Below, in pieces: positions 14,619 to 64,000 of a DNA stretch of 64,000 nt. The position numbers and the translations under genes were made by a program. The notes beneath the pieces were generated by a model. It had not been told where the DNA came from. It did not search any database and saw nothing but the letters and a program-made list of their open reading frames with translations. How positions within the stretch are numbered: the first letter of the stretch is position 1; each line of letters opens with the position of its first letter. Source of the stretch: Candidatus Magasanikbacteria bacterium RIFOXYC2_FULL_42_28 (lineage in GTDB: Bacteria; Patescibacteriota; Patescibacteriia; Magasanikbacterales; GWA2-37-8); the NCBI GenBank assembly GCA_001784435.1, contig MFQZ01000010.1, positions 169,960 through 233,959 of the forward strand. The letters are read 5' to 3'.

Positions 14619-15665
14619 TTGTGGTATAATATACCTATGGACAATAATACCAAACAACCAACAATTTTAGTCAAAAAATCCGACGGCACCTTCGCGCGGA
14701 TGTCTTTGGGGGAGATAAAAAAGATGAAAGTGGGTAAAATTACAGCACCGTCGTCTGTCATCCTGAATGAAATGAAGGATCCCTTGAAGTTGGCAGTAAG
14801 GGATTCTTCGGTCGCTACGCTTCCTCAGAATGACAATAACAAAAAAGTCGGAATGACAGGTAAAGACGCCAAGTCGCTTTTAGAAGAAGACAAATTGGTA
14901 GCCCCGGGCACGAGCGTTGCCGTTGGCCGAAATAATCAGGTGGACACGGTAATTAAAAAACTATCATTTTCCGTCGCGTCTAATTTTTTCAATCGTTTGC
15001 GGAGCGCGATTCAGTTGCGTTTAAAAGATGTACGCGGGGAAAAAGAAACACGCGCCACGGTGTTGCGTTCTATAAAAGACGGGGGACTGGGCTTGACTGA
15101 AACCCAAGCCAACGAATTGGAGCAAGTGTGCGCGACGGTGGGTAATTTATTGGCGCGACCACCGGCTAAAAGTAAAACTGATTTAATGGTTGAAGATCAA
15201 ATTTTACCGCAAACGTTTCACAAAATGCCTGTGCCGGCGAAAATGGCTCCACATAACGCGTTTGTGCATGAGGAATTTTTAAAAAAAGAAGAAAAATTTA
15301 AAATTAGTCCAGTGGCTGTTAGCCGACCGGCGATGAAGGATGTGGTTGCCGCCGCCGCGCCGGTCGGGCCGGTGGAGGAAATTAAATTTTTTACCCTAAC
15401 TGATTTTCGGCGTTTGGCCCAAGACCCTAACCAAGCCACCAAACGTTTGGCGCAAAAATTTATTAATTTGCGTGAAGAATCAGTTTTGTTATTTTGGCAG
15501 GCCTTGGATGCCTGGAAGCAAAGCCCGTTATTTGCCGACTATGTTGGTGTATTAAATCGAGTTTTTATCGGTAAAGTCGCGTCTGATCAGCAAAAAACGA
15601 GTGACCAGATAACCGATGTTGAGATAAAGGCGCTTATCGCGATGGAAAAAGATTTGGTAATCTGA
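14619..15665 (+). CDS. hypothetical protein (348 aa); its promoter and 5' end are duplicated upstream of the AbiE cassette
   Basis: ORF only; no motif recognised. Confidence 0.4.
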   Translation: MWYNIPMDNNTKQPTILVKKSDGTFARMSLGEIKKMKVGKITAPSSVILNEMKDPLKLAVRDSSVATLPQNDNNKKVGMTGKDAKSLLEEDKLVAPGTSVAVGRNNQVDTVIKKLSFSVASNFFNRLRSAIQLRLKDVRGEKETRATVLRSIKDGGLGLTETQANELEQVCATVGNLLARPPAKSKTDLMVEDQILPQTFHKMPVPAKMAPHNAFVHEEFLKKEEKFKISPVAVSRPAMKDVVAAAAPVGPVEEIKFFTLTDFRRLAQDPNQATKRLAQKFINLREESVLLFWQALDAWKQSPLFADYVGVLNRVFIGKVASDQQKTSDQITDVEIKALIAMEKDLVI

Positions 15666-18661: not shown

Positions 18662-19261
18662 ATGCTTCCACTTCGCACCCGCATTTTCATAATCATCAGT
18701 TTAGTGGTTCTGGTAGTTCTGGGTATTAGTGTGTTGGTCTCGGTTTTAAGTAACCGTGAACCATCGGCGCCCACGACCGAGACGCCCGATTCGGTCGTTG
18801 ATTTGCCGGCCGGGACAGTGCTGTATAATGGTGCACCAGTGGTAGTGTCCCCAATAGAAAACGGTTTAACTCCACCGCCCGCACTCACTACTTTAGAGGC
18901 CGAACAAAACAGCGTCCGTCAATTGGCGCGGATTTTTACCATTCGTTATAATTCTTATTCCACGGATGCTAATTATCAAAATATTCGTGAAGTGCAGAGT
19001 TTGGTAACGGACAATTTATGGGCGCAAATTAGCAAACCACTCGCCGGTAACAGCGTTAGCGCCAATTTTTTGGGCGTTACTACCAATGTTATTGGCACGG
19101 AATTATTGTCCTGGGGAAGTGACGTCGCGGTTGTGGCCGTAAAAACCACTTCGGTGCAAGATAAAAATGGAGTAGAAAGTAATTTAGCGCGTAGTGGCAC
19201 GGTGAATTTGGTTAAGACCGACGGTCAATGGTTGGTAGATAAATTTGCATGGGAGAAATGA
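18662..19261 (+). CDS. bitopic membrane protein (N-terminal TM plus ~150-aa extracytoplasmic domain), VirB8-like candidate
   Basis: N-terminal IFIIISLVVLVVLGISVLVSVL helix. Its size and topology match VirB8-type proteins, but no motif was verified. Confidence 0.25.
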   Translation: MLPLRTRIFIIISLVVLVVLGISVLVSVLSNREPSAPTTETPDSVVDLPAGTVLYNGAPVVVSPIENGLTPPPALTTLEAEQNSVRQLARIFTIRYNSYSTDANYQNIREVQSLVTDNLWAQISKPLAGNSVSANFLGVTTNVIGTELLSWGSDVAVVAVKTTSVQDKNGVESNLARSGTVNLVKTDGQWLVDKFAWEK

Positions 19262-19273
19262 CATTCGATTCGT

Positions 19274-19309
19274 TTGTCATTCCCGTGAAAATGGGAATCC
19301 AGTCGTCAA
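19274..19309. repeat. TGTCATT-family palindromic element (ttgtcattcccgtgaaaatgggaatccagtcgtcaa)
   Basis: Near-identical copy at 61844-61879: ctgtcattcccgcgaaagcgggaatccagtcgtcaa. It overlaps the likely comFC start codon. Confidence 0.7.
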
Positions 19310-20007
19310 TTAAAGACAATCTATTTCCCATTTTTTGCGTGGACTGCGGACGGGAAGGGGAGACGTGGTGTGAAAACTGCCGGCGACAATTTGATGTTGC
19401 CGGTATTTTATTTTGTCCGGTTTGTTCTTTGCAGGCAGACAATGGCAAGACCCATTCCACTTGCGCGCGCGCCAATTGGCATTTGGACGGTTTGGTATCT
19501 TTGGTGCCTTATCGCGACAATTCGCCTTTGACACGGTTAATTAAACAATTAAAATATCATTTTGTTTCTGATAACGCCGATTGGATGGCGGATATTTTAC
19601 GAATTTGGTTGGCGTTTAATAGCGAGCGCGTTAAATTTATTTTTAATAATCGGATAATTGTGCCGGTACCGTTACACCGTCGTCGTTTGCGCGAGCGGGG
19701 ATTTAATCAGGCCGAATTAATCGCGGAAGCGTTAAGATTAGTTTTGTCAGAGCGCGGAATTGAAGATAATGTCAGCACTAAATTAGAACGCAGTCGTTAT
19801 ACTAGCGCGCAAGCGCGACTACACGAAGAAGCGAGAGAAAAAAATATGCTCTCTGCTTTTAAATGGCCGGATCAAGAGGTTTGCCCGCGCGCGGTGGTTT
19901 TGGTTGACGATGTTTACACTACCGGCGCCACGATGAATATGGCCGCTGGCGCGCTTAAAGCCGTGGGCGCGCAATCGGTGTGGGGGTTTACTTTATTGCG
20001 TGGGTAA
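19291..20007 (+). CDS. comFC: ComF/ComFC-family phosphoribosyltransferase-like competence protein
   Basis: N-terminal Cys4 zinc-finger (CVDCG...CENC, CPVCS) and C-terminal PRTase motif VVLVDDVYTTGATM. Start could be 19249 (track) or the ATG at 19291. Confidence 0.65.
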   Translation: MGIQSSIKDNLFPIFCVDCGREGETWCENCRRQFDVAGILFCPVCSLQADNGKTHSTCARANWHLDGLVSLVPYRDNSPLTRLIKQLKYHFVSDNADWMADILRIWLAFNSERVKFIFNNRIIVPVPLHRRRLRERGFNQAELIAEALRLVLSERGIEDNVSTKLERSRYTSAQARLHEEAREKNMLSAFKWPDQEVCPRAVVLVDDVYTTGATMNMAAGALKAVGAQSVWGFTLLRG

Positions 20008-28560: not shown

Positions 28561-28577
28561 TATGATATTGAGGTGAT

Positions 28578-28700
28578 AATGTCAAATTTCCAATTTCCAA
28601 TGTCAAATCAAGCCCAAAATCCAAAACCCAAATTACAAATTGACATTTGAGCTTTGATCTTGATTTGAAATTGGAAATTTGGATTTTGAAATTTTAAGTT
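28578..28700. repeat. MITE-like intergenic element, family A copy 1 (terminal inverted repeats tcaaatttccaatttccaa / ttggaaatttggattttga)
   Basis: Second copy at 32293-32402 sharing about 30 nt at each end. Core atttgagctttga is shared with family B. Confidence 0.7.
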
Positions 28701-28705
28701 TAATT

Positions 28706-32263: not shown

Positions 32264-32292
32264 TATTTTTGTTATACTAACTGGTGTAAATA

Positions 32293-32402
32293 ATGTCCAA
32301 TTTCCAATTTCCAATGTCAAATCAATGTCAAAGCTCAAACGTTAAATTTGATATTTGGATTTTGGATTTGATTTGACATTGGTAATTTGGATTTTGACAT
32401 TA
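32293..32402. repeat. MITE-like intergenic element, family A copy 2
   Basis: aatgtccaatttccaatttccaatgtcaaatcaa ... ttggtaatttggattttgacatt; see the 28578 copy. Confidence 0.7.
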
Positions 32403-32446
32403 TCAAAATTATTGATAGCTATTTTGATAATAGCAGACATTACGTT

Positions 32447-33361
32447 ATGTGCAATTTTATTGGTAATACCAAAATTCACCAGTATTTTTCTAAAATTGAT
32501 GGTAATAGTCAACTTGGTCATGCTTATGGATTTGCCGGATTAAATCAGGTGGGCAAACTCACTTTGGCAAAAATTGCCGCCGCGAAATTGTTGGGCGTCA
32601 CAATAGAAAAATTAGCGAGTAGTCCGGATTTTTATTTTGTGGAACGAGCTGTTGATGAAAAAACCGGTAAATTAAAACAAGACATTTCCGTTGAACAAGC
32701 GCGTGATGTCAAAGATATTTTGTTGCGCCGGCCGTGGTTAGGCGGATATCAAGTTGTAATAATTGACGAGATTGAACATTTGAATAAGGCCTCGGCCAAT
32801 TCCTTGTTAAAATTTTTAGAAGAACCGGCCAGTAAGAGTATTATTTTTATTATTACCGAAGACGAAAGTAAATTATTGCCGACCGTGCGTTCGCGGTGCC
32901 AATGGTGGCGGTTTAATCCGGTGGCGGAAGCGGAAATTGCGACTGGATTGCGTGAGCGCGGTATTGACGCGAGTGTCGCGAGCGAAGTTGCGGTTTTGGC
33001 CTCGGGACGGCCGGGGCGCGCTTTGGATTTGGCGCAGAGTCCGGAAAAATTAGCGTTAATTAAAGCCGAAGTGGTTCGTTACGAGAATTTGCGAATTGCG
33101 CCGGTACACGAACGATTTAAAACCATAGAAAGTTTAGCCGGAGAAAAAAAGGGTGCTACGCGTGGTAAAGATGAGTTAGATGAAATTTTACAAATTTGGA
33201 CAACGATAGAGCGAAAAAAAATGTTGCTCGCGATCGGGGCGTCTCAAAACCAATCTGTTAAAGTAATTGACGGTCTGACCAAATTACGCGAGTATTTAGG
33301 GAAGAATATTCATCCGCGTTTAGCGTTAGAAGAATTCTCATTAAATTTACCAATTAATTAA
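32447..33361 (+). CDS. holB: DNA polymerase III delta' subunit
   Basis: AAA+ clamp-loader motifs GHAYGFAGLNQVGK and TVRSRCQ. Start taken at the ATG 32447, because the track start lies inside the repeat element. Confidence 0.7.
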   Translation: MCNFIGNTKIHQYFSKIDGNSQLGHAYGFAGLNQVGKLTLAKIAAAKLLGVTIEKLASSPDFYFVERAVDEKTGKLKQDISVEQARDVKDILLRRPWLGGYQVVIIDEIEHLNKASANSLLKFLEEPASKSIIFIITEDESKLLPTVRSRCQWWRFNPVAEAEIATGLRERGIDASVASEVAVLASGRPGRALDLAQSPEKLALIKAEVVRYENLRIAPVHERFKTIESLAGEKKGATRGKDELDEILQIWTTIERKKMLLAIGASQNQSVKVIDGLTKLREYLGKNIHPRLALEEFSLNLPIN

Positions 33362-33365
33362 ATAT

Positions 33366-33480
33366 TAAATTCTAAACTCTAAATTCTAAACAAATCCAAA
33401 AATTAAAATTCAAATACTAAAATTTGAGCTTTGAAAAATTTGAACTTGTTTAGAGTTTAGAAATTAGAGTTTAGAATTTT
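33366..33480. repeat. MITE-like intergenic element, family B copy 1 (TIRs aaattctaaactctaaattctaaacaa / ttgtttagagtttagaaattagagtttagaattt)
   Basis: Second copy at 58118-58236. Central atttgagctttga core is shared with family A. Confidence 0.7.
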
Positions 33481-34572: not shown

Positions 34573-34614
34573 TTGTCATTGCGAGGACCCGCCTCGGGCG
34601 GGGACGCGGCAATC
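34573..34614. repeat. TGTCATT-family GC-rich palindromic element (ttgtcattgcgaggacccgcctcgggcggggacgcggcaatc)
   Basis: Shares the TGTCATT(G/C)CGAGG head with the secA-internal element at 60966, and the cccgcctcgggcggg hairpin with 22570 and 31140. Confidence 0.6.
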
Positions 34615-34647
34615 TCTTCAATTATTAAAAAATAAAATAAACACAAT

Positions 34648-56886: not shown

Positions 56887-58110
56887 ATGTTATTTCAAGA
56901 TTTGATGGAAGAAACATTTTTTTCCGTGACCGCGAATAAATCGCGATCGGCTTTGACAATTCTCGGGATTGTAATTGGTATTAGCTCGGTGATTGCGATG
57001 ATTTCGGTGGGGCAGGGTGCGAGTCAAGATATCGCCAGTAGAATTTCCGCGTTGGGCACAAATTTATTAGTGGTGACGCCGGGCAATGCTCGTCAAAGTG
57101 GAGGAAATTTAGTGCGCAGTGGTAGTGGTTCGGCTACTAGTTTGACTTTGGAAGATGCCATTGCGGTCAAAAGCGTGTCCGGTGCTAAAATTGTCGCGCC
57201 CACTATTTCGGCGCGCAAACAAGTGACTGCGAAAGGTAAAAATACCAACACCAGTATCAACGGCATCGATGATCAATATTTTATTGTAAAAAATATTAAT
57301 TTAGCGCAAGGAATTGGAATTACGAGTGGGCAGGTGACAGCACGTTCCAAAGTGGCGGTGCTCGGGCCGACGACGCGCGATGATTTGTTCGGTGTGGACG
57401 CGAGCGTGGTTGGATTAAAAATTCGCATTGGCAGTCAAGAATATTCAGTGGTGGGTGTTACCGAAGCCAAAGGCGGGACGGGTTTTGGGAGTTCGGATGA
57501 TTTGATTTATATTCCGATTAGCACGGCGGCCCAATATTTAACCGGTTCACAATCAGTCAGCAATATTAACATTGAAGCTACGACCGCCGAGGAGATGACA
57601 ATGGTGCAGGCGGAAGTGATGGCGCTTTTGATGGCACGGCATCGGATTTCCGATCCACTATTAGCGGATTTTTCAATTTTAAATCAAGAAGATTTATTGT
57701 CTTCGGCATCATCGGTGGCCGGCACGATGACAATGTTACTCGGCGCGATCGCGGGAATTTCTTTGTTGGTTGGCGGTATTGGTATTATGAATATGATGTT
57801 AACAACCGTCACGGAACGCACCCGCGAAATTGGTTTGCGTAAATCACTGGGCGCGAAAAATCATGACATCAGCGCGCAATTTTTAGCCGAGGCCGTGGCG
57901 TTTACTTTTACCGGCGGGATTATTGGAATAATTTTAGGGTGGCTCGCGTCTTTGGCAATTCACCAGTTTTCCGGTTTAACCACAGTAGTAAATTGGGCGT
58001 CAGTTTCTTTATCGTTTGGAATCGCCGCCGTAGTTGGTTTGGTGTTTGGATATTATCCGGCCAAGCGCGCGGCGAAATTGGATCCGATTGAGGCGCTAAG
58101 ATATCAATAA
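56887..58110 (+). CDS. ABC transporter permease with FtsX-like domain (MacB-type)
   Basis: N-terminal TM, large periplasmic domain, C-terminal 3-TM FtsX-like region. Confidence 0.7.
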   Translation: MLFQDLMEETFFSVTANKSRSALTILGIVIGISSVIAMISVGQGASQDIASRISALGTNLLVVTPGNARQSGGNLVRSGSGSATSLTLEDAIAVKSVSGAKIVAPTISARKQVTAKGKNTNTSINGIDDQYFIVKNINLAQGIGITSGQVTARSKVAVLGPTTRDDLFGVDASVVGLKIRIGSQEYSVVGVTEAKGGTGFGSSDDLIYIPISTAAQYLTGSQSVSNINIEATTAEEMTMVQAEVMALLMARHRISDPLLADFSILNQEDLLSSASSVAGTMTMLLGAIAGISLLVGGIGIMNMMLTTVTERTREIGLRKSLGAKNHDISAQFLAEAVAFTFTGGIIGIILGWLASLAIHQFSGLTTVVNWASVSLSFGIAAVVGLVFGYYPAKRAAKLDPIEALRYQ

Positions 58111-58117
58111 GTTAAAA

Positions 58118-58236
58118 CTATAAATACTAAACTCTAAATTCTAAACAAATTCAAATTATTCAAATCCAAAATTTAAACATTTGAATTTTATGTTTTGAAC
58201 TTGTTTAGAGTTTAGTATTTCGTGTTTAGTATTTAA
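58118..58236. repeat. MITE-like intergenic element, family B copy 2
   Basis: aaactctaaattctaaacaaat ... gaacttgtttagagtttag matches the 33366 copy. Confidence 0.7.
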
Positions 58237-58246
58237 AATTAAGTAT

Positions 58247-58810
58247 ATGTCCAAACTATTAACAATATTTTCTGTCGGTGCAATTTTGGTTTTTACTTCC
58301 GGCTGTGGCAATACAAAACAACCAGACAACAACACTGCGCCAACTGATTTTACCGCGCGTCGAAATGTTTCTACCACACCGTTTGGCGCGGATTTTCCTA
58401 TTGGCACGACCACTGATTTGGCAATTGGTAAAAAAGTTATGGTGGTGGGTTCGGCTGGGTCAGATGGAATTGTCAGCGCCGCGCAAATTGTGGTTGGTGA
58501 ATTTAATTTTGGTATGGGTTTTGACGGTGCTCGATTCGCGACCGACACACCGACCGGACAACAAAGGCAGCGTCCAAATTTTAACGGCCAAGGTGGTGGC
58601 GGCCAAGGTGGTGGAAATTTCGCCGGACGAGCAGGCGACAGTAGGGGAATGACGCGAGTAGTTGGCGAAATTATCAAAATGGACAATACCAGTTTGGTGG
58701 TAAAAACCAATGATGGTGGCTCAAAAATCGTTTTTTATTCAGCAAATGTCAAGATTTTGCTGCCACCCATCGCGATTACGCCTGTGAAAACTGCCAGCAC
58801 TACGCCATAA
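58247..58810 (+). CDS. Gly-rich lipoprotein, function unknown
   Basis: Signal peptide with lipobox FTSGC; GQGGGGQGGGNFAGRAGD low-complexity stretch. Confidence 0.45.
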   Translation: MSKLLTIFSVGAILVFTSGCGNTKQPDNNTAPTDFTARRNVSTTPFGADFPIGTTTDLAIGKKVMVVGSAGSDGIVSAAQIVVGEFNFGMGFDGARFATDTPTGQQRQRPNFNGQGGGGQGGGNFAGRAGDSRGMTRVVGEIIKMDNTSLVVKTNDGGSKIVFYSANVKILLPPIAITPVKTASTTP

Positions 58811-58906: not shown

Positions 58907-61783
58907 ATGAGTTTTTTAACCAAAATTTTCGGTGATCCGAACGCCAAGGTAATCAAGGAAATTCAGCCGATTGTAGATAAAATTAATAGTTTAGAAAGCG
59001 ATTTAAAGGCGTTAAGCGATGAAGCGCTCAAAGCCAAGACCGCCGAATTTAAAGACCGCCTCTCAAAAGGCGAAACTTTGAATGATATTTTACCAGAATC
59101 GTTTGCGGTTGTGCGCGAAGCATCTCGGCGCGCGACCGGTATGCGTCATTTTGATGTTCAACTTATTGGTGGTGTCGCTTTGCATCGCGGACAAATTTCG
59201 GAAATGCGCACGGGTGAAGGTAAAACGCTTGTGGCCACGTTACCGATATATTTAAATGCTTTGGCTGGCAAAGGTGTCCATCTCGTTACTGTCAATGATT
59301 ACTTGGCCAAACGTGATGCCGTGTGGATGGGCAAAATTTATGATTTCTTGGGAATGAGTGTGGGGATTATTCAACAGCTTGGTGCTTCATTTAAATATAG
59401 AAGTGCGCTCGCGAACGCTCCCACCTCACCCTCGCCCTCTCCTCGGGCAGGAGAGGGGGCGACAGACGCGGACGCGACTGTAATTGGTAAAATTAAAGTT
59501 GGGGATGAAGAGGTTGAACAGTGCACGCGTCGCGAGGCCTATGCTTGCGACATTACTTATGGCACGAACAACGAATTTGGGTTTGATTATTTGCGCGATA
59601 ATATGGCGCCGTCACTTTCGGAAATGGTGCAAAGGCCATTTTATTACGCTATTGTTGATGAGGTTGACTCCATTTTAGTTGATGAGGCGCGCACGCCTTT
59701 GATTATTTCCGCTCCGGCCGAAGAGGCGGCGGATTTGTATTATAAATTCGCGGATTTGGTAAAGCGTTTAAAAGAAAATGAGGACTTTAATATTGATGAA
59801 AAAATGCGCTCAAGCACTTTAACGGACGCGGGTTTGAAAAAAATGGAGGACTGGCTTGGGATTGGCAATATTTATGCCGAGGGCGGGATGACGATGGTGC
59901 ACCATGTGGAGCAGGCCTTGCGCGCGCACGCGTTGTTTAAACGTGATCGTGATTACGTGGTTGATAACGGAGAAGTGGTGATTGTGGATGAATTTACCGG
60001 ACGTAAAATGCCCGGTCGACGTTATAGCGAAGGTTTGCACCAAGCGATTGAAGCGCAAGAAGGCGTAAAAATTCAGCGCGAGAGTCGAACTTTGGCAACG
60101 GTCACATTTCAAAATTATTTCCGTTTGTATGAAAAATTATCCGGTATGACCGGCACGGCGGTAACCGAGGCGGAAGAATTTGGCAAAATTTATAATTTAG
60201 AAGTGGTCGTTATTCCGACCAACCACCCTAATAAACGCGCGGATCGGCCGGATCGAATTTATCGCACCGAAGAAGCAAAATGGCAGGCGATCGCGAAAGA
60301 AGTTAAAGAATTGCAAACCAAAGGCCAGCCGGTTTTGATCGGCACGATTTCGGTGGAAAAAAATGAGGCGTTGAGCTTGTATTTGGATCGCGAAGGAATC
60401 AAGCATGAAATTTTAAACGCCAAAAATCACGAACGAGAAGGTGAAATTATCGCGCAAGCCGGTCGGCCGGGTGCGGTAACTTTGGCTACCAATATGGCGG
60501 GACGTGGCGTGGATATTATTTTAGGTGGTAATCCACCGGAAGTTGAAGCGCGTGATAAAGTTTTGAATGCCGATGGTTTGTTTGTAATTGGTACCGAGCG
60601 CCACGAATCGCGTCGTATTGATAATCAGTTGCGTGGTCGTGCCGGTCGCCAAGGAGATCCGGGCGCTACTCAATTTTATTTATCCACCGATGATGATTTG
60701 ATGCGAATTTTTGCGGGTGACAGAATCAAATCAGTCATGCAAACTTTGAAAGTGCCGGATGATATGCCGATTGAAAACAAAGGCATTACGAGAATTATTG
60801 AATCCGCCCAACGCAAAGTGGAAGGATTTCATTTTGATACGCGCAAGCATTTGTTGGAATACGACGATGTGTTGAACCGTCATCGTGAAGTTGTTTATGG
60901 CAAACGCCGAAATGTCTTGGATATTTTTGAGCAAGAAAAAAATGCGCTGTTTGGCGCGTCGTCAACTGTCATTCCGAGCGAGGCTCGCGCCGACGAGGAA
61001 TCTCCATTACAACGGGATGGAGATTTCTCACCCACTGCGACGGGGATTCGAAATGACAGTGATGTGATGGTTCCTCGCAATGACAACAAAACTCTGCGCG
61101 ATATTATTTTTGAAATGTTAGAGCAAGAAATCGAACAGGTAGTTTCCTTTCATACCAACGCCGAAGAACGACGCGAATGGAATATGGCAGAAATTAAAGA
61201 AACTGTGGTGACAATTTTCCCGTTGAACAGTGCGGAGCAAGAGCAATTATTGCACATGAGCAACGGTGGGACAGAAAAATTACAAGCCGTAGAAGCGCGG
61301 ACAAAAATTATTGAATATTTATTTGAACTGGCCAAGAAAAAATACGATGAGATGCTGGTGTCAGTCGTGCCGGATAAAGCAATGTTAATTGAAATTGAAA
61401 AGCAGGTGTTATTGCGTTCCATTGATAATTTGTGGGTTGAGCATTTGGTCGCGGTAGATTATTTGCGTACCGGCATTGGTCTGCGCGGTTATGGCCAGCG
61501 TGACCCACTTGTGGAATACAAAAAAGAAACTTATCGGATGTTTAATGAATTGTTAAGTTTGATTCAGAAAGAGGTTGTTTACACGATTTACAAAGTGAGC
61601 GCCGGCATTGCTTTGGCACCATCGGTGATGGCTAAAGGAAATATGATTTTAAGTGGGGCAGGCAAAGAAATGGCGGTTACTAAAACTGCCACTAAAGACG
61701 CCGAAGGCCACAAAATCGGGCGCAACGACCCATGTTATTGCGGGAGTGGTAAGAAATTTAAACGTTGTCATGGCGCTGAATAA
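58907..61783 (+). CDS. secA: preprotein translocase ATPase SecA (with two GC-rich in-frame inserts and C-terminal zinc-finger tail)
   Basis: Canonical SecA motifs (e.g. TNNEFGFDYLRDNM, GRQGDPG), CYCGSGKKFKRCHG tail. Confidence 0.9.
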   Translation: MSFLTKIFGDPNAKVIKEIQPIVDKINSLESDLKALSDEALKAKTAEFKDRLSKGETLNDILPESFAVVREASRRATGMRHFDVQLIGGVALHRGQISEMRTGEGKTLVATLPIYLNALAGKGVHLVTVNDYLAKRDAVWMGKIYDFLGMSVGIIQQLGASFKYRSALANAPTSPSPSPRAGEGATDADATVIGKIKVGDEEVEQCTRREAYACDITYGTNNEFGFDYLRDNMAPSLSEMVQRPFYYAIVDEVDSILVDEARTPLIISAPAEEAADLYYKFADLVKRLKENEDFNIDEKMRSSTLTDAGLKKMEDWLGIGNIYAEGGMTMVHHVEQALRAHALFKRDRDYVVDNGEVVIVDEFTGRKMPGRRYSEGLHQAIEAQEGVKIQRESRTLATVTFQNYFRLYEKLSGMTGTAVTEAEEFGKIYNLEVVVIPTNHPNKRADRPDRIYRTEEAKWQAIAKEVKELQTKGQPVLIGTISVEKNEALSLYLDREGIKHEILNAKNHEREGEIIAQAGRPGAVTLATNMAGRGVDIILGGNPPEVEARDKVLNADGLFVIGTERHESRRIDNQLRGRAGRQGDPGATQFYLSTDDDLMRIFAGDRIKSVMQTLKVPDDMPIENKGITRIIESAQRKVEGFHFDTRKHLLEYDDVLNRHREVVYGKRRNVLDIFEQEKNALFGASSTVIPSEARADEESPLQRDGDFSPTATGIRNDSDVMVPRNDNKTLRDIIFEMLEQEIEQVVSFHTNAEERREWNMAEIKETVVTIFPLNSAEQEQLLHMSNGGTEKLQAVEARTKIIEYLFELAKKKYDEMLVSVVPDKAMLIEIEKQVLLRSIDNLWVEHLVAVDYLRTGIGLRGYGQRDPLVEYKKETYRMFNELLSLIQKEVVYTIYKVSAGIALAPSVMAKGNMILSGAGKEMAVTKTATKDAEGHKIGRNDPCYCGSGKKFKRCHGAE
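59405..59478 (+). repeat. GC-rich palindromic insert inside secA (hairpin ccctctcctcgggcaggagaggg at 59435-59457), in frame, encoding ALANAPTSPSPSPRAGEGATDADAT
   Basis: Sharp GC jump versus surroundings. It expands a loop that has about 12 aa in E. coli SecA (between VGI and REAYAxDITYGT). Confidence 0.55.
60966..61059 (+). repeat. TGTCATT-family element inside secA, in frame (ctgtcattccgagcgagg ... cgaaatgacag inverted termini)
   Basis: Termini ctgtcattccg / cgaaatgacag are inverted repeats. The head matches the elements at 34573, 19274 and 61844; it encodes about 31 aa of a SecA loop. Confidence 0.6.
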
Positions 61784-61843: not shown

Positions 61844-61918
61844 CTGTCATTCCCGCGAAAGCGGGAATCCAGTCGTCAAATTTAAAATTCTGGATCCCCG
61901 TTTTCACGGGGATGACAA
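61844..61918. repeat. two inverted copies of the TGTCATT-family element between secA and secD (ctgtcattcccgcgaaagcgggaatccagtcgtcaa ... ctggatccccgttttcacggggatgacaa)
   Basis: Read directly. Each copy contains a GNRA-type hairpin (cccgcGAAAgcggg); together they form a long hairpin. Confidence 0.7.
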
Positions 61919-61929
61919 TTAAATTAATT

Positions 61930-64000
61930 ATGGCCAATAAATATCATCAAGCCGTTGCAAAAAATTTAACTCGTTCTACCATTAGATGGCGTGTGGCCGG
62001 CGTGGCGATTTTGTTAGTCGCGTCGCTAACGGTCGTGTTGCCTAATTATGCCAATTCCGGAATCAATTGGATTAATTCCAAGACCAATATCGGCTTGCCA
62101 CAGTTGCCGGCCGGCGGTTTTAATTTAGGTTTGGATTTACAGGGTGGCGCGCATTTAATTTATGAGGCCAAAACCGACAATATCGCGGCGGCCGACCGCG
62201 CTGATTCCGTTGAGGGTGTGCGTGATGTGATTGAACGTCGTGTTCGTGGTGGTTTGGGTGTGGCCGAGCCGCTCGTCCAGACAACGCGCGTGGGTGAGAC
62301 CTATCGCGTGATTGTGGAGTTGCCGGGTGTTAAGGATGTTAATCAGGCGATCCAAATGATTGGCGGTACGCCGGTGTTGGAATTTAAAGAAGAAAATAAC
62401 GAGCCACCGCGCCCCTTGACCGCGACAGAACAAAAAGAATTAAAGGATTTTAATACCGCGGCGAAAAAGAAAGCGAACGAAGCATTGGTCGCGGCCAAAA
62501 CCGATTTTGCCGGAGCGGTAACAAAATATACCGAAGATGACCGCAGTAAAAATAACGGCGGGGATATCGGTTTTATTGACAGTCGAACCTTTCCTGAGAT
62601 TTTTGCTTGGGCCAAAACCGTTAAAGACGGTGAAATTGGCAAAAATTTAGTTGAAAGCGCCGAAGGTTATAGTGTCGTTAAACGCGTGGCTGAAAAAGAC
62701 GGCGAACGCTATGTCTCGGCTTCGCATATTTTAATTTGTTTCCTTGGCGCCGAGCGCTGTGATAATCCGCAATATACACGTGATCAAGCGACTGCTAAAA
62801 TTGCCGAATTAAAAACCAAAGCCACTCCACAGAATTTCGCGCAACTGGCGCGGGAAAATTCCACGGAACCGGGCGCGGCTGACCGCGAAGGGGACTTGGG
62901 TAAATTTAAAAAGGGCGAAATGGTGCCGGCTTTTGAAGCGGTGGCGTTTGACCTGCCCGTGGGGACAATTTCCGAACCGGTGGAGACCCAATTTGGTTTT
63001 CATTTAATTTATAAAACAAATGATGAAACGGAAAAGCAATATCAAGTAAGCAGAATTTTGGCGCGCACTAAAACTGAAATTGATATTGTGCCACCGGTAT
63101 CGCAGTGGAAGCCAACTGGTTTGTCCGGTAAGCAACTCGCGCGCGCGGAAGTTACTGAAGATTATCAGACCGGCCAAGTGCAAGTCAGTTTAAATTTTGA
63201 TGATGAAGGCGTTAAATTATTTTCGGAAATTACTACACGTAATGTTGGCAAGCCAGTGGCCATTCTGTTAGATGGTGAAGAAATCAGTGTGCCGACAGTT
63301 AATGAGCCGATTTTATCCGGCAGTGCCGTTATTTCCGGCGGGTTTACTTTAATGGAAGCGAAATTATTGGCGCAACGGCTTAATTCCGGCGCTCTGCCGG
63401 TGCCGGTTGAACTCGTAAGTCAACAGAGTGTGGGTGCGACGCTGGGATTTGATTCTTTAAATAAAAGTTTTAAAGCCGGTTTAATTGGTTTGGCAGTGGT
63501 TATATTATTCATGATTTTGTACTACCGCTTGTCGGGTATTCTCGCGGCTTTGAGTTTGGCGGTTTATGCGGCTTTGAGTTTGGCTATCTTTAAATTAGTC
63601 GGCGTTACCCTAACTCTTTCCGGTATCGCCGGTTTCGTTCTATCAATTGGTATGGCGGTGGACGCCAATGTGCTGGTATTTGAACGTCTTAAAGAAGAGT
63701 TGCGTTTGGGCAAAAGTTTGAAATCGGCCATGGAAGAGGCGTTTGTGCGCGCCTGGACATCAATTCGGGACAGCAACATCACCGGCCTTATCAGTTGTGT
63801 GTTTATGGTTTGGATGGGCGTGGGTTTTGTGCAGGGCTTTGCCGTTACTTTGGCTATTGGTATCCTGGTATCAATGTTTTCCGCCGTTATTATTACTCGC
63901 ACTTTGGCGCGTTGGATTTTTAGTTGGTTTAAAGAAGATGGCAATTGGTTATTTTTGGGACATCTTAAAAAAGACGCGTCTGCCAAGTCGGTCACCAATA
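61930..64000 (+). CDS. secD: SecD (or fused SecDF) with two parvulin-type PPIase domains inserted in the periplasmic head; 3'-truncated by window edge
   Basis: SecD P1 motifs (LGLDLQGG, VIVELPGV), then two PpiC-like domains (SKNNGGDIGFI...; REGDLGKFKKGEMVPAFEAVAFDLPVGTISEPVETQFGFHLI), then SecD TM bundle (LAAFVLSIGMAVDANVLVFERLKEE). Confidence 0.75.
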   Translation, partial: MANKYHQAVAKNLTRSTIRWRVAGVAILLVASLTVVLPNYANSGINWINSKTNIGLPQLPAGGFNLGLDLQGGAHLIYEAKTDNIAAADRADSVEGVRDVIERRVRGGLGVAEPLVQTTRVGETYRVIVELPGVKDVNQAIQMIGGTPVLEFKEENNEPPRPLTATEQKELKDFNTAAKKKANEALVAAKTDFAGAVTKYTEDDRSKNNGGDIGFIDSRTFPEIFAWAKTVKDGEIGKNLVESAEGYSVVKRVAEKDGERYVSASHILICFLGAERCDNPQYTRDQATAKIAELKTKATPQNFAQLARENSTEPGAADREGDLGKFKKGEMVPAFEAVAFDLPVGTISEPVETQFGFHLIYKTNDETEKQYQVSRILARTKTEIDIVPPVSQWKPTGLSGKQLARAEVTEDYQTGQVQVSLNFDDEGVKLFSEITTRNVGKPVAILLDGEEISVPTVNEPILSGSAVISGGFTLMEAKLLAQRLNSGALPVPVELVSQQSVGATLGFDSLNKSFKAGLIGLAVVILFMILYYRLSGILAALSLAVYAALSLAIFKLVGVTLTLSGIAGFVLSIGMAVDANVLVFERLKEELRLGKSLKSAMEEAFVRAWTSIRDSNITGLISCVFMVWMGVGFVQGFAVTLAIGILVSMFSAVIITRTLARWIFSWFKEDGNWLFLGHLKKDASAKSVTN

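Follow-up and report, generated by a model that had tools for sequence, protein, structure and literature searches.

Hairpin repeats of two families carried in frame at two length-tolerant sites of secA in Candidatus Magasanikbacteria

The secA gene of Candidatus Magasanikbacteria bacterium RIFOXYC2_FULL_42_28 (contig MFQZ01000010.1, positions 169,960 to 233,959, a stretch of 64,000 nucleotides called the window hereafter) contains palindromic repeat sequence at two places. Very probably, two unrelated families of hairpin repeats, both common in Patescibacteria, have each left one in-frame copy in this gene at the only two length-tolerant places of the protein, where the copies would be translated as probably disordered loops and are likely tolerated as selfish or neutral DNA. 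The original prediction, made from the sequence of the window, had described two palindromic elements in frame within secA. Both blocks turned out to be repeat-derived and the reading frame is kept through both, but the boundaries proposed for them were not supported. Block 1 contains a copy of a short repeat, family B, in an extended loop of NBD1 (loop 1), and block 2 is a longer nested hairpin, family A, between the scaffold helix and the wing domain (site 2).

The secA coding sequence (58907-61783, forward strand) is one uninterrupted open reading frame (ORF) of 958 residues. The product retrieves 8000 SecA homologues and contains all five SecA Pfam domains; solved SecA structures are matched with E = 1e-249. 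The closest named relatives are SecA proteins of Candidatus Magasanikbacteria, which belong to the Patescibacteria or candidate phyla radiation (CPR). A variant that is 99% identical, with 12 differences (P0001), has both inserts.

The family A element of block 2 consists of 92 nucleotides (60967-61058, forward strand) that form a nested hairpin. The outer stem pairs TGTCATTCC with GAAATGACA, the left arm is of the type ATTCC-N21-GGAAT, the right arm is also a hairpin, and the central stem of 14 bp pairs GAGGAATCTCCATT with GATGGAGATTTCTC. The element is read as VIPSEARADEESPLQRDGDFSPTATGIRND and folds with a z-score of -3.1. The inverted termini that had been predicted at 60966-61059 are present, as CTGTCATTCCG and CGAAATGACAG with one mismatch. 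The predicted size of about 95 bp and 31 residues stands only in part: the 92-94 nucleotides are not a multiple of three, and the real insert, delimited by protein alignment and by codon comparison with L001, L076 and L002, extends over 60950-61081 (forward strand; residues 682-725, FGASSTVIPSEARADEESPLQRDGDFSPTATGIRNDSDVMVPRN). There, 44 residues replace about 12 of the closest relatives, with a net gain of 32. A second tail, CTCGCAATGACA, follows the element at 61074-61085 (forward strand), and its last four nucleotides overlap the ancestral DNKT codons. The same 12-mer also ends the copies of the TGTCATTGCGAG...CTCGCAATGACA subfamily in L027, L034, L046, L050 and L063; the tail in secA is probably the remnant of an earlier insertion.

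Insert 2 is absent from every SecA with 78% identity or less. The idea that both inserts would be specific to the lineage or strain is thus supported by the ortholog alignment for site 2, but not for the long loop of block 1, which is common to the clade. Two closer proteins, P0002 (86% identical) and P0003 (81%), were rejected as empty-site controls, being mosaics that share one half with this SecA. P0002 is identical from about residue 500 onward and has insert 2 with a normal loop 1; P0003 is identical up to about residue 520 and has the present loop 1 without insert 2. In both proteins the other half is about 75% identical, the switch falls near residue 500-520 and a recorded contig is lacking. 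Recombination or chimeric assembly could have produced them.

The sequence of block 2 is also found far outside SecA. About 90 nucleotides of collinear sequence and structure are common to insert 2 and to copies in leucyl-tRNA synthetase (LeuRS), QueA, a ComEC-like protein and intergenic DNA of other organisms and, judged from these alignments, family A is a dispersed element. Homologues at the DNA level were located in L004, L003, L083-L085, L090 and L091. In L004, from Magasanikbacteria of Lake Baikal, the collinear TGTCATTCCGAGCGAGCCTCGCGGCGACGAGGAATCTC...GGGGATTCGGGATGACA occupies loop 1 of SecA in the same frame and is read VIPSEPRGDEES... (VIPSEPRGDEESLSQPTDGQRSLTPAKGIRDDK), and L003 has another family A copy in loop 1 of SecA. 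A metagenome scan with a 35-nucleotide left-arm pattern recovered ten loci, seven of them distinct after duplicate contigs were merged. The element was in frame in LeuRS (three elements in one gene), in QueA (two elements), in the ComEC-like protein and, in the opposite orientation, in the R subunit of a type I restriction enzyme (HsdR), and two loci were intergenic.

Family A can be described as an inverted pair of hairpin units of about 75-100 nucleotides. Among 12 distinct full copies that were aligned, most are in frame within long ORFs. The outer stem of 9 bp, TGTCAT(T/C)CC / GG(A/G)ATGACA, is invariant, whereas the arm hairpins vary. The central stem GGAATC...GAT(T/C)CC is kept across the 12 copies, with compensatory changes in five pairs. 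The LeuRS with three in-frame elements (L084 5069-8824, a groundwater metagenome contig) is a protein of 1252 residues which also bears NUDIX and serine-hydrolase (alpha/beta) domains after the editing domain.

Block 1 lies in the extended NBD1 loop (59369-59524, forward strand; residues 155-206), between the VGIIQ strand and the REAY motif. The loop is a clade-wide feature and a hot spot of length variation. Eight residues are found at this place in B. subtilis SecA, and the loop of the present protein is 44 residues longer. About 30 residues of it (...EGSxxDKERDAKGMFKVEYEYLEPCSRQEAY) are common to essentially all Patescibacteria SecA examined, and its length equals exactly that of relatives such as P0073. 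The gain of about 38 residues ascribed to block 1 is therefore not upheld, as about 30 of the 44 extra residues are clade-wide and the repeat itself is only about 48 nucleotides long.

The composition and the hairpin reported for block 1 were both recovered. The GC content is 67-72% at 59400-59489 against a window mean of 41.7%, and the perfect hairpin of 23 nucleotides, CCCTCTCC-TCGGGC-AGGAGAGGG, has a stem of 9 bp and a loop of 5 nucleotides at 59435-59457 (fold z-score -1.9). By themselves these features are unremarkable. At least 68% GC is also reached by 15 other patches of 60 nucleotides in the window, all ordinary Ala/Gly-rich coding sequence, so that GC richness was rejected as a repeat criterion; perfect 9-bp hairpins number 34 in the window.

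Block 1 is real as a repeat through its membership of family B, whose unit, CCTCACCC-NN-CCCTCTCC-loop-GGAGAGGG, is about 40-48 nucleotides long. The copy in secA (59416-59463, forward strand; 48 nucleotides, 16 codons) reads GCTCCCA-CCTCACCC-TCG-CCCTCTCC-TCGGGC-AGGAGAGGG-GGCGACA and encodes roughly APTSPSPSPRAGEGAT. In 755 kb of CPR DNA there are five occurrences of the motif CCCTCTCC-N3-9-GGAGAGGG, where 20 simulations produced none, and four of the five copies have an asymmetric TCACCC flank 2-3 nucleotides from the stem. The local alignment with the copy in L089 spans 59416-59463, and the left flank is significant in it while the right one is not; as far as the alignments go, only about 48 nucleotides of block 1 are demonstrably repeat. 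A strict copy is in frame at site 2 of a Komeilibacteria SecA (L067), where loop 1 and the region near residue 730 also contain two looser CCCCTCC...GGAGGGG hairpins. The relaxed motif is in frame in the HsdR of L082 and in an ORF of 1543 residues. In E. coli genomes and in plasmids, family B gave no E. coli match and only two weak Sinorhizobium matches, and a named counterpart was not established; a resemblance to repeats of enterobacteria is at most a possible lead.

Next to the repeat, the loop motif DKERDAKGMFKVEYEYLEPC (residues 185-206, about 59460-59524), which is conserved in nearly all relatives, has decayed to DADATVIGKIKVGDEEVEQC (DADATVIGKIKVGDEEVE). Three of the 12 differences from P0001 fall in the NBD1 loop. 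The sequence comparison suggests a relaxed constraint on this loop in the present lineage. The tryptic peptides from the insert regions would be ADEESPLQR, DGDFSPTATGIR and NDSDVMVPR, together with a loop-1 peptide containing SPSPSPR.

The two places occupied in this protein are those at which SecA of related bacteria has gained sequence repeatedly. In the 120 closest SecA homologues, insertions of at least 8 residues fall almost only at the same two sites, and many of them bear VIP(S/T/A)..., ...LGMT, ...(R/Q)(N/D)D(N/K) or SP..P.RG.. signatures. The same repeat peptide, SLLEEGREMLVNA(N/D)TSPTPPSRG(D/E)L, occurs at both hot spots of P0109. As different families are found at the same site in different lineages, the insertions are repeated independent events and not an ancestral loop. 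Site 2 follows the long scaffold helix and precedes the first helix of the wing domain. B. subtilis SecA has no residues there: residues 672 and 726 of the present protein both align to its residue 622. In an AlphaFold2 model built on 61 sequences, residues 169-199 and 685-725 are predicted without secondary structure and with pLDDT below 50, the latter being flanked by confidently predicted helices (625-681 and 730-750). A low pLDDT is expected for lineage-specific inserts, and the model shows only that nothing suggests a folded domain there.

The reading frame of the copies is strongly biased. The heads of 19 elements lie inside ORFs of at least 200 residues, and 16 of them are read as V-I-P or V-I-L, two as S-F and one as C-H-S; a few of these 19 head 9-mers are chance matches. 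The tails are translated as G-M-T or x-(N/D)-D; in their third frame there is a TGA. Such a bias would be expected if selection favoured an acidic, hydrophilic peptide (VIPSEARADEES...) over the basic peptides of the alternative frames. It may also arise from a preference in the phase of insertion.

From these data, the following course of events is proposed. The secA copies contain no stop codon in the frame used and would be translated as hydrophilic, probably disordered surface loops of SecA, one in the clade-specific NBD1 loop and the other at the turn that joins the scaffold helix to the wing domain. Copies at other positions or in other frames would be removed by selection, and those in the two loops most likely persist by being tolerated there, as selfish or neutral DNA. 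By analogy with the literature, the copies may be spread by a hairpin-specific enzyme acting on single-stranded DNA, such as an Ssn-type GIY-YIG nuclease.

A further palindrome lies outside the gene. The intergenic element between secA and secDF (61845-61917) lies 60 nucleotides past the secA stop codon and 800 bp from the insert in secA. It reads TGTC-ATTCCCGC-GAAA-GCGGGAAT-CCAG ... CTGG-ATCCCCGT-TTTC-ACGGGGAT-GACA, that is, an inverted pair of hairpins of the ATTCCC-N8-GGGAAT type, and folds at -43 kcal/mol (z = -9). The head of the secA element, the 17-mer TGTCATTCCGAGCGAGG, had been said to match the intergenic elements at 34573, 19274 and 61844. In the window this 17-mer matches only itself, even when three mismatches are allowed. 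What the secA element has in common with the copies at 19275 and 61845 is TGTCATTCC and no more, and the copy at 34574 reads TGTCATTGCGAGG. The kinship of the secA element with the intergenic copies of the window is thus, at the sequence level, one of shared termini and architecture.

In Neisseria, the repeat dRS3 extends to the NTS, a sequence of 28 nucleotides (CGTCATTCCCGCGMAVGCGGGAATCYRG), which is bound and cut as single-stranded DNA by SsnA, a GIY-YIG nuclease of 94 residues whose gene is flanked by NTS (PMC11893778, Nat Commun 2025). The function shown for NTS in Neisseria is to limit transformation (PMC11893778). NTS relatives in several phyla are covered by the degenerate SRM motif, and SRM-rich genomes are found mainly among symbionts, Rickettsia and Wolbachia included; intragenic copies are not discussed in that paper (PMC11893778). 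Leaving aside the first base, the left arm of the 61845-61917 element, GTCATTCCCGCGAAAGCGGGAATCCAG, agrees with the NTS consensus at 27 of 27 positions. Both arms of the element also fit the SRM motif, HGTCWYN(0-2)YYVSBRHN(0-5)WNVSBRGN(0-2)RNCYNB, which has three matches in the window against 0.1 expected. The strict SRM pattern is not matched by the secA insert, the 19275 unit or the 34574 unit. Near-identical units were found by blastn against plasmid records in Sphingopyxis indica, Azospirillum and Neisseria gonorrhoeae (21 places per record). In the Sphingopyxis indica plasmid pMC4, the ileS gene (L092 1501-1578) carries an in-frame inverted dimer similar to NTS, HPRESGDPERASANPTLDSRFRGNDK, whose left arm is identical to the 61845-61917 copy at 28 of 28 positions.

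The elements of the window are close to the CGTC-tagged REPs. These have a stem of 8-9 bp and a loop of 4-5 nucleotides, are mostly inverted dimers and have no dedicated transposase (Di Nocera, De Gregorio and Rocco 2013, PMC3733652). Neisserial dRS3 is CGTC-1, and the families of R. conorii, RPE-6 and RPE-4, are assigned to the same CGTC-REP class (PMC3733652). Intragenic CGTC/GTAG REP dimers encode 20-30 residues, and Patescibacteria are not among the five phyla listed for CGTC-tagged REPs (PMC3733652). As in that class, the elements described here are short stem-loop units with a (C/T)GTC tag, mostly arranged as inverted dimers able to form a larger hairpin (61845-61917, 60967-61058 and 14756-14858). 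They form a dispersed family of many copies, scattered in intergenic DNA just past stop codons and also inside known genes, with no adjoining dedicated transposase. The unit of 61845-61917 (ATTCCCGC-GAAA-GCGGGAAT) has a stem of 8 bp and a loop of 4 nucleotides, and the 19275 unit is also within the stem and loop ranges. Unlike the CGTC-REPs, all window copies start with TGTC and not CGTC. The same unit reads CGTC in Neisseria and TGTC in Sphingopyxis, and the SRM motif permits H at this position. The arms of the secA copy, with stems of 5 bp and inserts of 21 nucleotides, differ from both CGTC-REPs and SRM in being outside the strict stem and loop ranges.

A resemblance to Rickettsia palindromic elements (RPE) had been proposed, and it is borne out by palindromes that are dispersed and in frame, family A occurring in other CPR genomes both within unrelated genes and between genes. 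RPE-1 (Ogata et al. 2000, summarised in the MITE review PMC10969869) is about 150 bp long, specific to Rickettsia and inserted in frame in unrelated housekeeping genes at positions considered compatible with the fold. Similarly, in-frame palindromes are found here in SecA, LeuRS, QueA, the ComEC-like protein, HsdR and a conserved hypothetical protein, and those of SecA are predicted to lie in low-confidence loops between confident helices. The situation differs from RPE-1 in that here, across a radiation of phylum level, one protein has received copies of several short families, time and again in the same two loops. The comparison with Rickettsia is apt and possibly one of homology rather than analogy, because the canonical unit matches NTS/dRS3 and dRS3 shares the CGTC-REP class with RPE-4 and RPE-6; the kinship with these two is drawn from the class stated in the literature.

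The elements share with MITEs (Correia, ERIC and the Anabaena MITEs) their small size, the lack of coding capacity, the terminal inverted repeats and the occasional in-frame position in genes (PMC10969869). Invariant ends of 9 bp, TGTCAT(T/C)CC / GG(A/G)ATGACA, are found in all 12 aligned copies, as in a MITE. Unlike MITEs, they are not flanked by target-site duplications, and no related insertion sequence was seen to share their ends.

Several points weigh against the view that mobile repeats were inserted into secA and tolerated there. A target-site duplication is not visible at any of the eight copies whose flanks were compared. In about 0.8 Mb of CPR sequence, of which about 72 kb come from this genome, no autonomous element, transposase or GIY-YIG gene adjoins any copy, and mobility is for this reason drawn from the distribution of the copies. 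A parent insertion sequence that shares the ends of the elements is also lacking in these 0.8 Mb, where the head-tail pairs spaced by 300-3500 bp are separate small elements within one gene. A GIY-YIG or ssnA gene was not found in these CPR loci by a motif search, three Pfam checks and inspection by eye of small ORFs flanked by repeats. The candidates with a GIY-YIG motif were an aminotransferase, a GNAT acetyltransferase, an MFS transporter or proteins with no Pfam match. The closest independent SecA with an empty site 2 are only 74-78% identical, so that the insertions are not datable or visible as polymorphisms, and the two closer sequences, P0002 and P0003, are the mosaics described above. 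The arms of insert 2 (stem of 5 bp, loop of 21 nucleotides) misfit the strict SRM and CGTC-REP definition. Block 1 shows no net gain of length, its hairpin part (GEG) aligns to the conserved EGS/EGG of relatives and its right flank is without homology; therefore, the replacement of a loop and not a simple insertion must be assumed. For family B, it has to be assumed that about 16 codons of repeat replaced earlier sequence in the hypervariable part of the ancestral loop.

Among the alternatives, the likeliest is that the elements are kept for a role of the nucleic acid, the peptide being a tolerated by-product. They could be hairpins through which an Ssn-type nuclease limits recombination or transformation across essential genes, or structures of the mRNA that slow ribosomes or set the stability of the transcript. 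Such a role would explain that compensatory changes maintain the stems among the copies, that the canonical unit is the same as the NTS, which SsnA binds and cuts in single-stranded form (PMC11893778), that a full copy lies 60 nucleotides past the end of secA, in a position from which REPs often work as RNA elements (PMC3733652), and that the LeuRS copies of L084 and L090 occupy the same site of diverged genes. However, conserved stems are also expected for a young mobile hairpin or for one whose spreading enzyme requires the hairpin, and the pattern by which the LeuRS copies were retrieved itself demands an identical left arm. The presence of the elements among close SecA lineages looks haphazard, different families use the same site, and the search of about 0.8 Mb of CPR sequence yielded no ssn-like gene. 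A nucleic-acid role is therefore considered rather improbable as the reason for which the elements are kept.

Less probable still is that the blocks are ordinary loops of this lineage which arose in place through point mutation and slippage, with palindromes and similarities due to chance or composition. Both sites do vary in length in all relatives, block 1 brings no net change of length, its hairpin is not significant alone (z = -1.9, one of 34 such hairpins in the window), and the claim of a shared 17-mer failed. On the other hand, insert 2 has about 90 nucleotides of collinear sequence and structure in common with copies in unrelated genes, and the family B motif with its asymmetric flank was counted five times where none was expected. 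Evolution in place is excluded for 60967-61058; it stays plausible only in the GC-rich margins of block 1 (59405-59415 and 59464-59478). Least credible of all, to the point of being almost negligible, is an artefact of assembly or binning in which repeat sequence was misjoined into secA. The source is a metagenome-assembled genome, and the relatives P0002 and P0003 look like mosaics of two lineages. Nevertheless, five public contigs, 50 kb to 1 Mb in length, encode the identical protein of 958 residues, so that it is not a one-off assembly product; the 99%-identical P0001 has both inserts, the reading frame is intact, and similar inserts recur across many independent assemblies.

In a wider and more speculative extension of the preferred explanation, for which the chances are judged to be modest at best and clearly below even, the elements of Patescibacteria, dRS3/NTS, the copies of Sphingopyxis and Azospirillum and RPE-4/RPE-6 would belong to one ancient class of mobile hairpins that crosses phyla. 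This class would be spread, and possibly policed, by Ssn-type GIY-YIG nucleases, and the colonisation of surface loops of essential proteins would be one of its general traits; in reduced genomes, where intergenic space is scarce, these loops would become its main refuge. If so, the identity of 28 of 28 positions with the left arm in the ileS of Sphingopyxis would reflect a constraint imposed by the enzyme or horizontal spread.

Translated palindromic repeats in housekeeping genes are already known, in Rickettsia since 2000 and for CGTC/GTAG REPs since 2013 (PMC10969869, PMC3733652). What is added here is the lineage, the focusing of insertions on two SecA hot spots throughout the radiation, and the occurrence of an in-frame insert in secA that shares ends and architecture with an NTS/SRM-matching unit lying 800 bp away outside the gene. 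The expectation that such insertions had not been described for this lineage agrees with the literature searched, as no paper on Patescibacteria was found among open-access papers and bioRxiv preprints. The elements add a new lineage to the link between the NTS/dRS3 of Neisseria, whose partner enzyme was identified in 2025, and the observation of selfish DNA in the proteins of Rickettsia, made 25 years ago.

The genomes of CPR bacteria are tiny and gene-dense, and selfish repeats have for this reason few sites besides genes. The repeats are often found inside essential CPR genes (SecA, LeuRS, QueA), always at a small number of tolerant loops and almost always in one frame. Part of the puzzling variation in the length of CPR proteins would thereby be explained. 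The repeats also caution annotators and structure predictors against taking such segments for functional domains. Should these genomes prove to contain an Ssn-like gene, the mode of spread becomes directly testable.

A search for further copies in frame had been suggested, and one more is present in the window besides those in other CPR genes. This second in-frame family A element (14756-14858, forward strand) reads TGTCATCCTGAATGAAATGAAGGATCCC ... AGAATGACA ... GGAATGACA and is translated as VILNEMKDPLKLAVRDSSVATLPQNDNNKKVGMT. Its host is a conserved hypothetical gene (14619-15665), in which it falls within the variable linker near the N terminus, and its subfamily also occupies site 2 of the SecA in L002. 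The product of this ORF (14619-15662) is 100% identical to protein A3J93_03705 of a Candidatus Magasanikbacteria bacterium RIFOXYC2_FULL_42 genome. The 170 homologues of the gene differ in their linkers, which often contain other pieces derived from elements. The family (with homologues P0123-P0175) so far appears limited to Magasanikbacteria and relatives; its linker is hypervariable and Pro-rich, and the different repeat-derived pieces found there in many members read ...PRND..., ...VGMT... or ...SAQDDK....

Single units are also found in the window. The hairpin unit TGTCATTCCCGTGAAAATGGGAATCCAG (19275-19302, forward strand) is located at the 5' end of a ComF-like ORF (19249-20007), for which the Pfam matches DZR_2 and Pribosyltran both remain under the curated cut-offs. 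An in-frame ATG lies inside the unit at 19291 (MGIQSS...), and from its position the unit may supply the real start codon or the 5' leader of this ORF. A single intergenic unit of the TGTCATTGCGAG subfamily (34574-34616, forward strand) lies 6 nucleotides past a stop codon.

Searches in other collections gave little. No family A copy was present in viral contigs, the subfamily of insert 2 was not matched in plasmids, and a word-indexed search with the insert-2 peptide of 48 residues returned nothing. In an exhaustive search of 1.8 billion representatives, the lone match to this peptide (P0121) was discarded as a low-complexity false match. In Rfam, no match reached the gathering score on the elements, and only chance-level matches (E = 0.2-0.8) were seen at 61844-61947.

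The neighbours of secA are secDF downstream and, upstream, an ABC/FtsX exporter and a small lipoprotein-like ORF. The gene 3' of secA (L081 13006-15996; in the window from about 61932) encodes a SecD/SecF fusion of 996 residues with two internal Pfam matches to rotamase (PPIase). The window also contains a third, AT-rich family of imperfect palindromes of 115-150 nucleotides, all of them intergenic (58101-58248, 33360-33479, 28567-28704 and 32290-32403). Its units are of the type AAACTCTAAATTCTAAAC / GTTTAGAGTTTAGAA, and one copy lies shortly upstream of the secA region.

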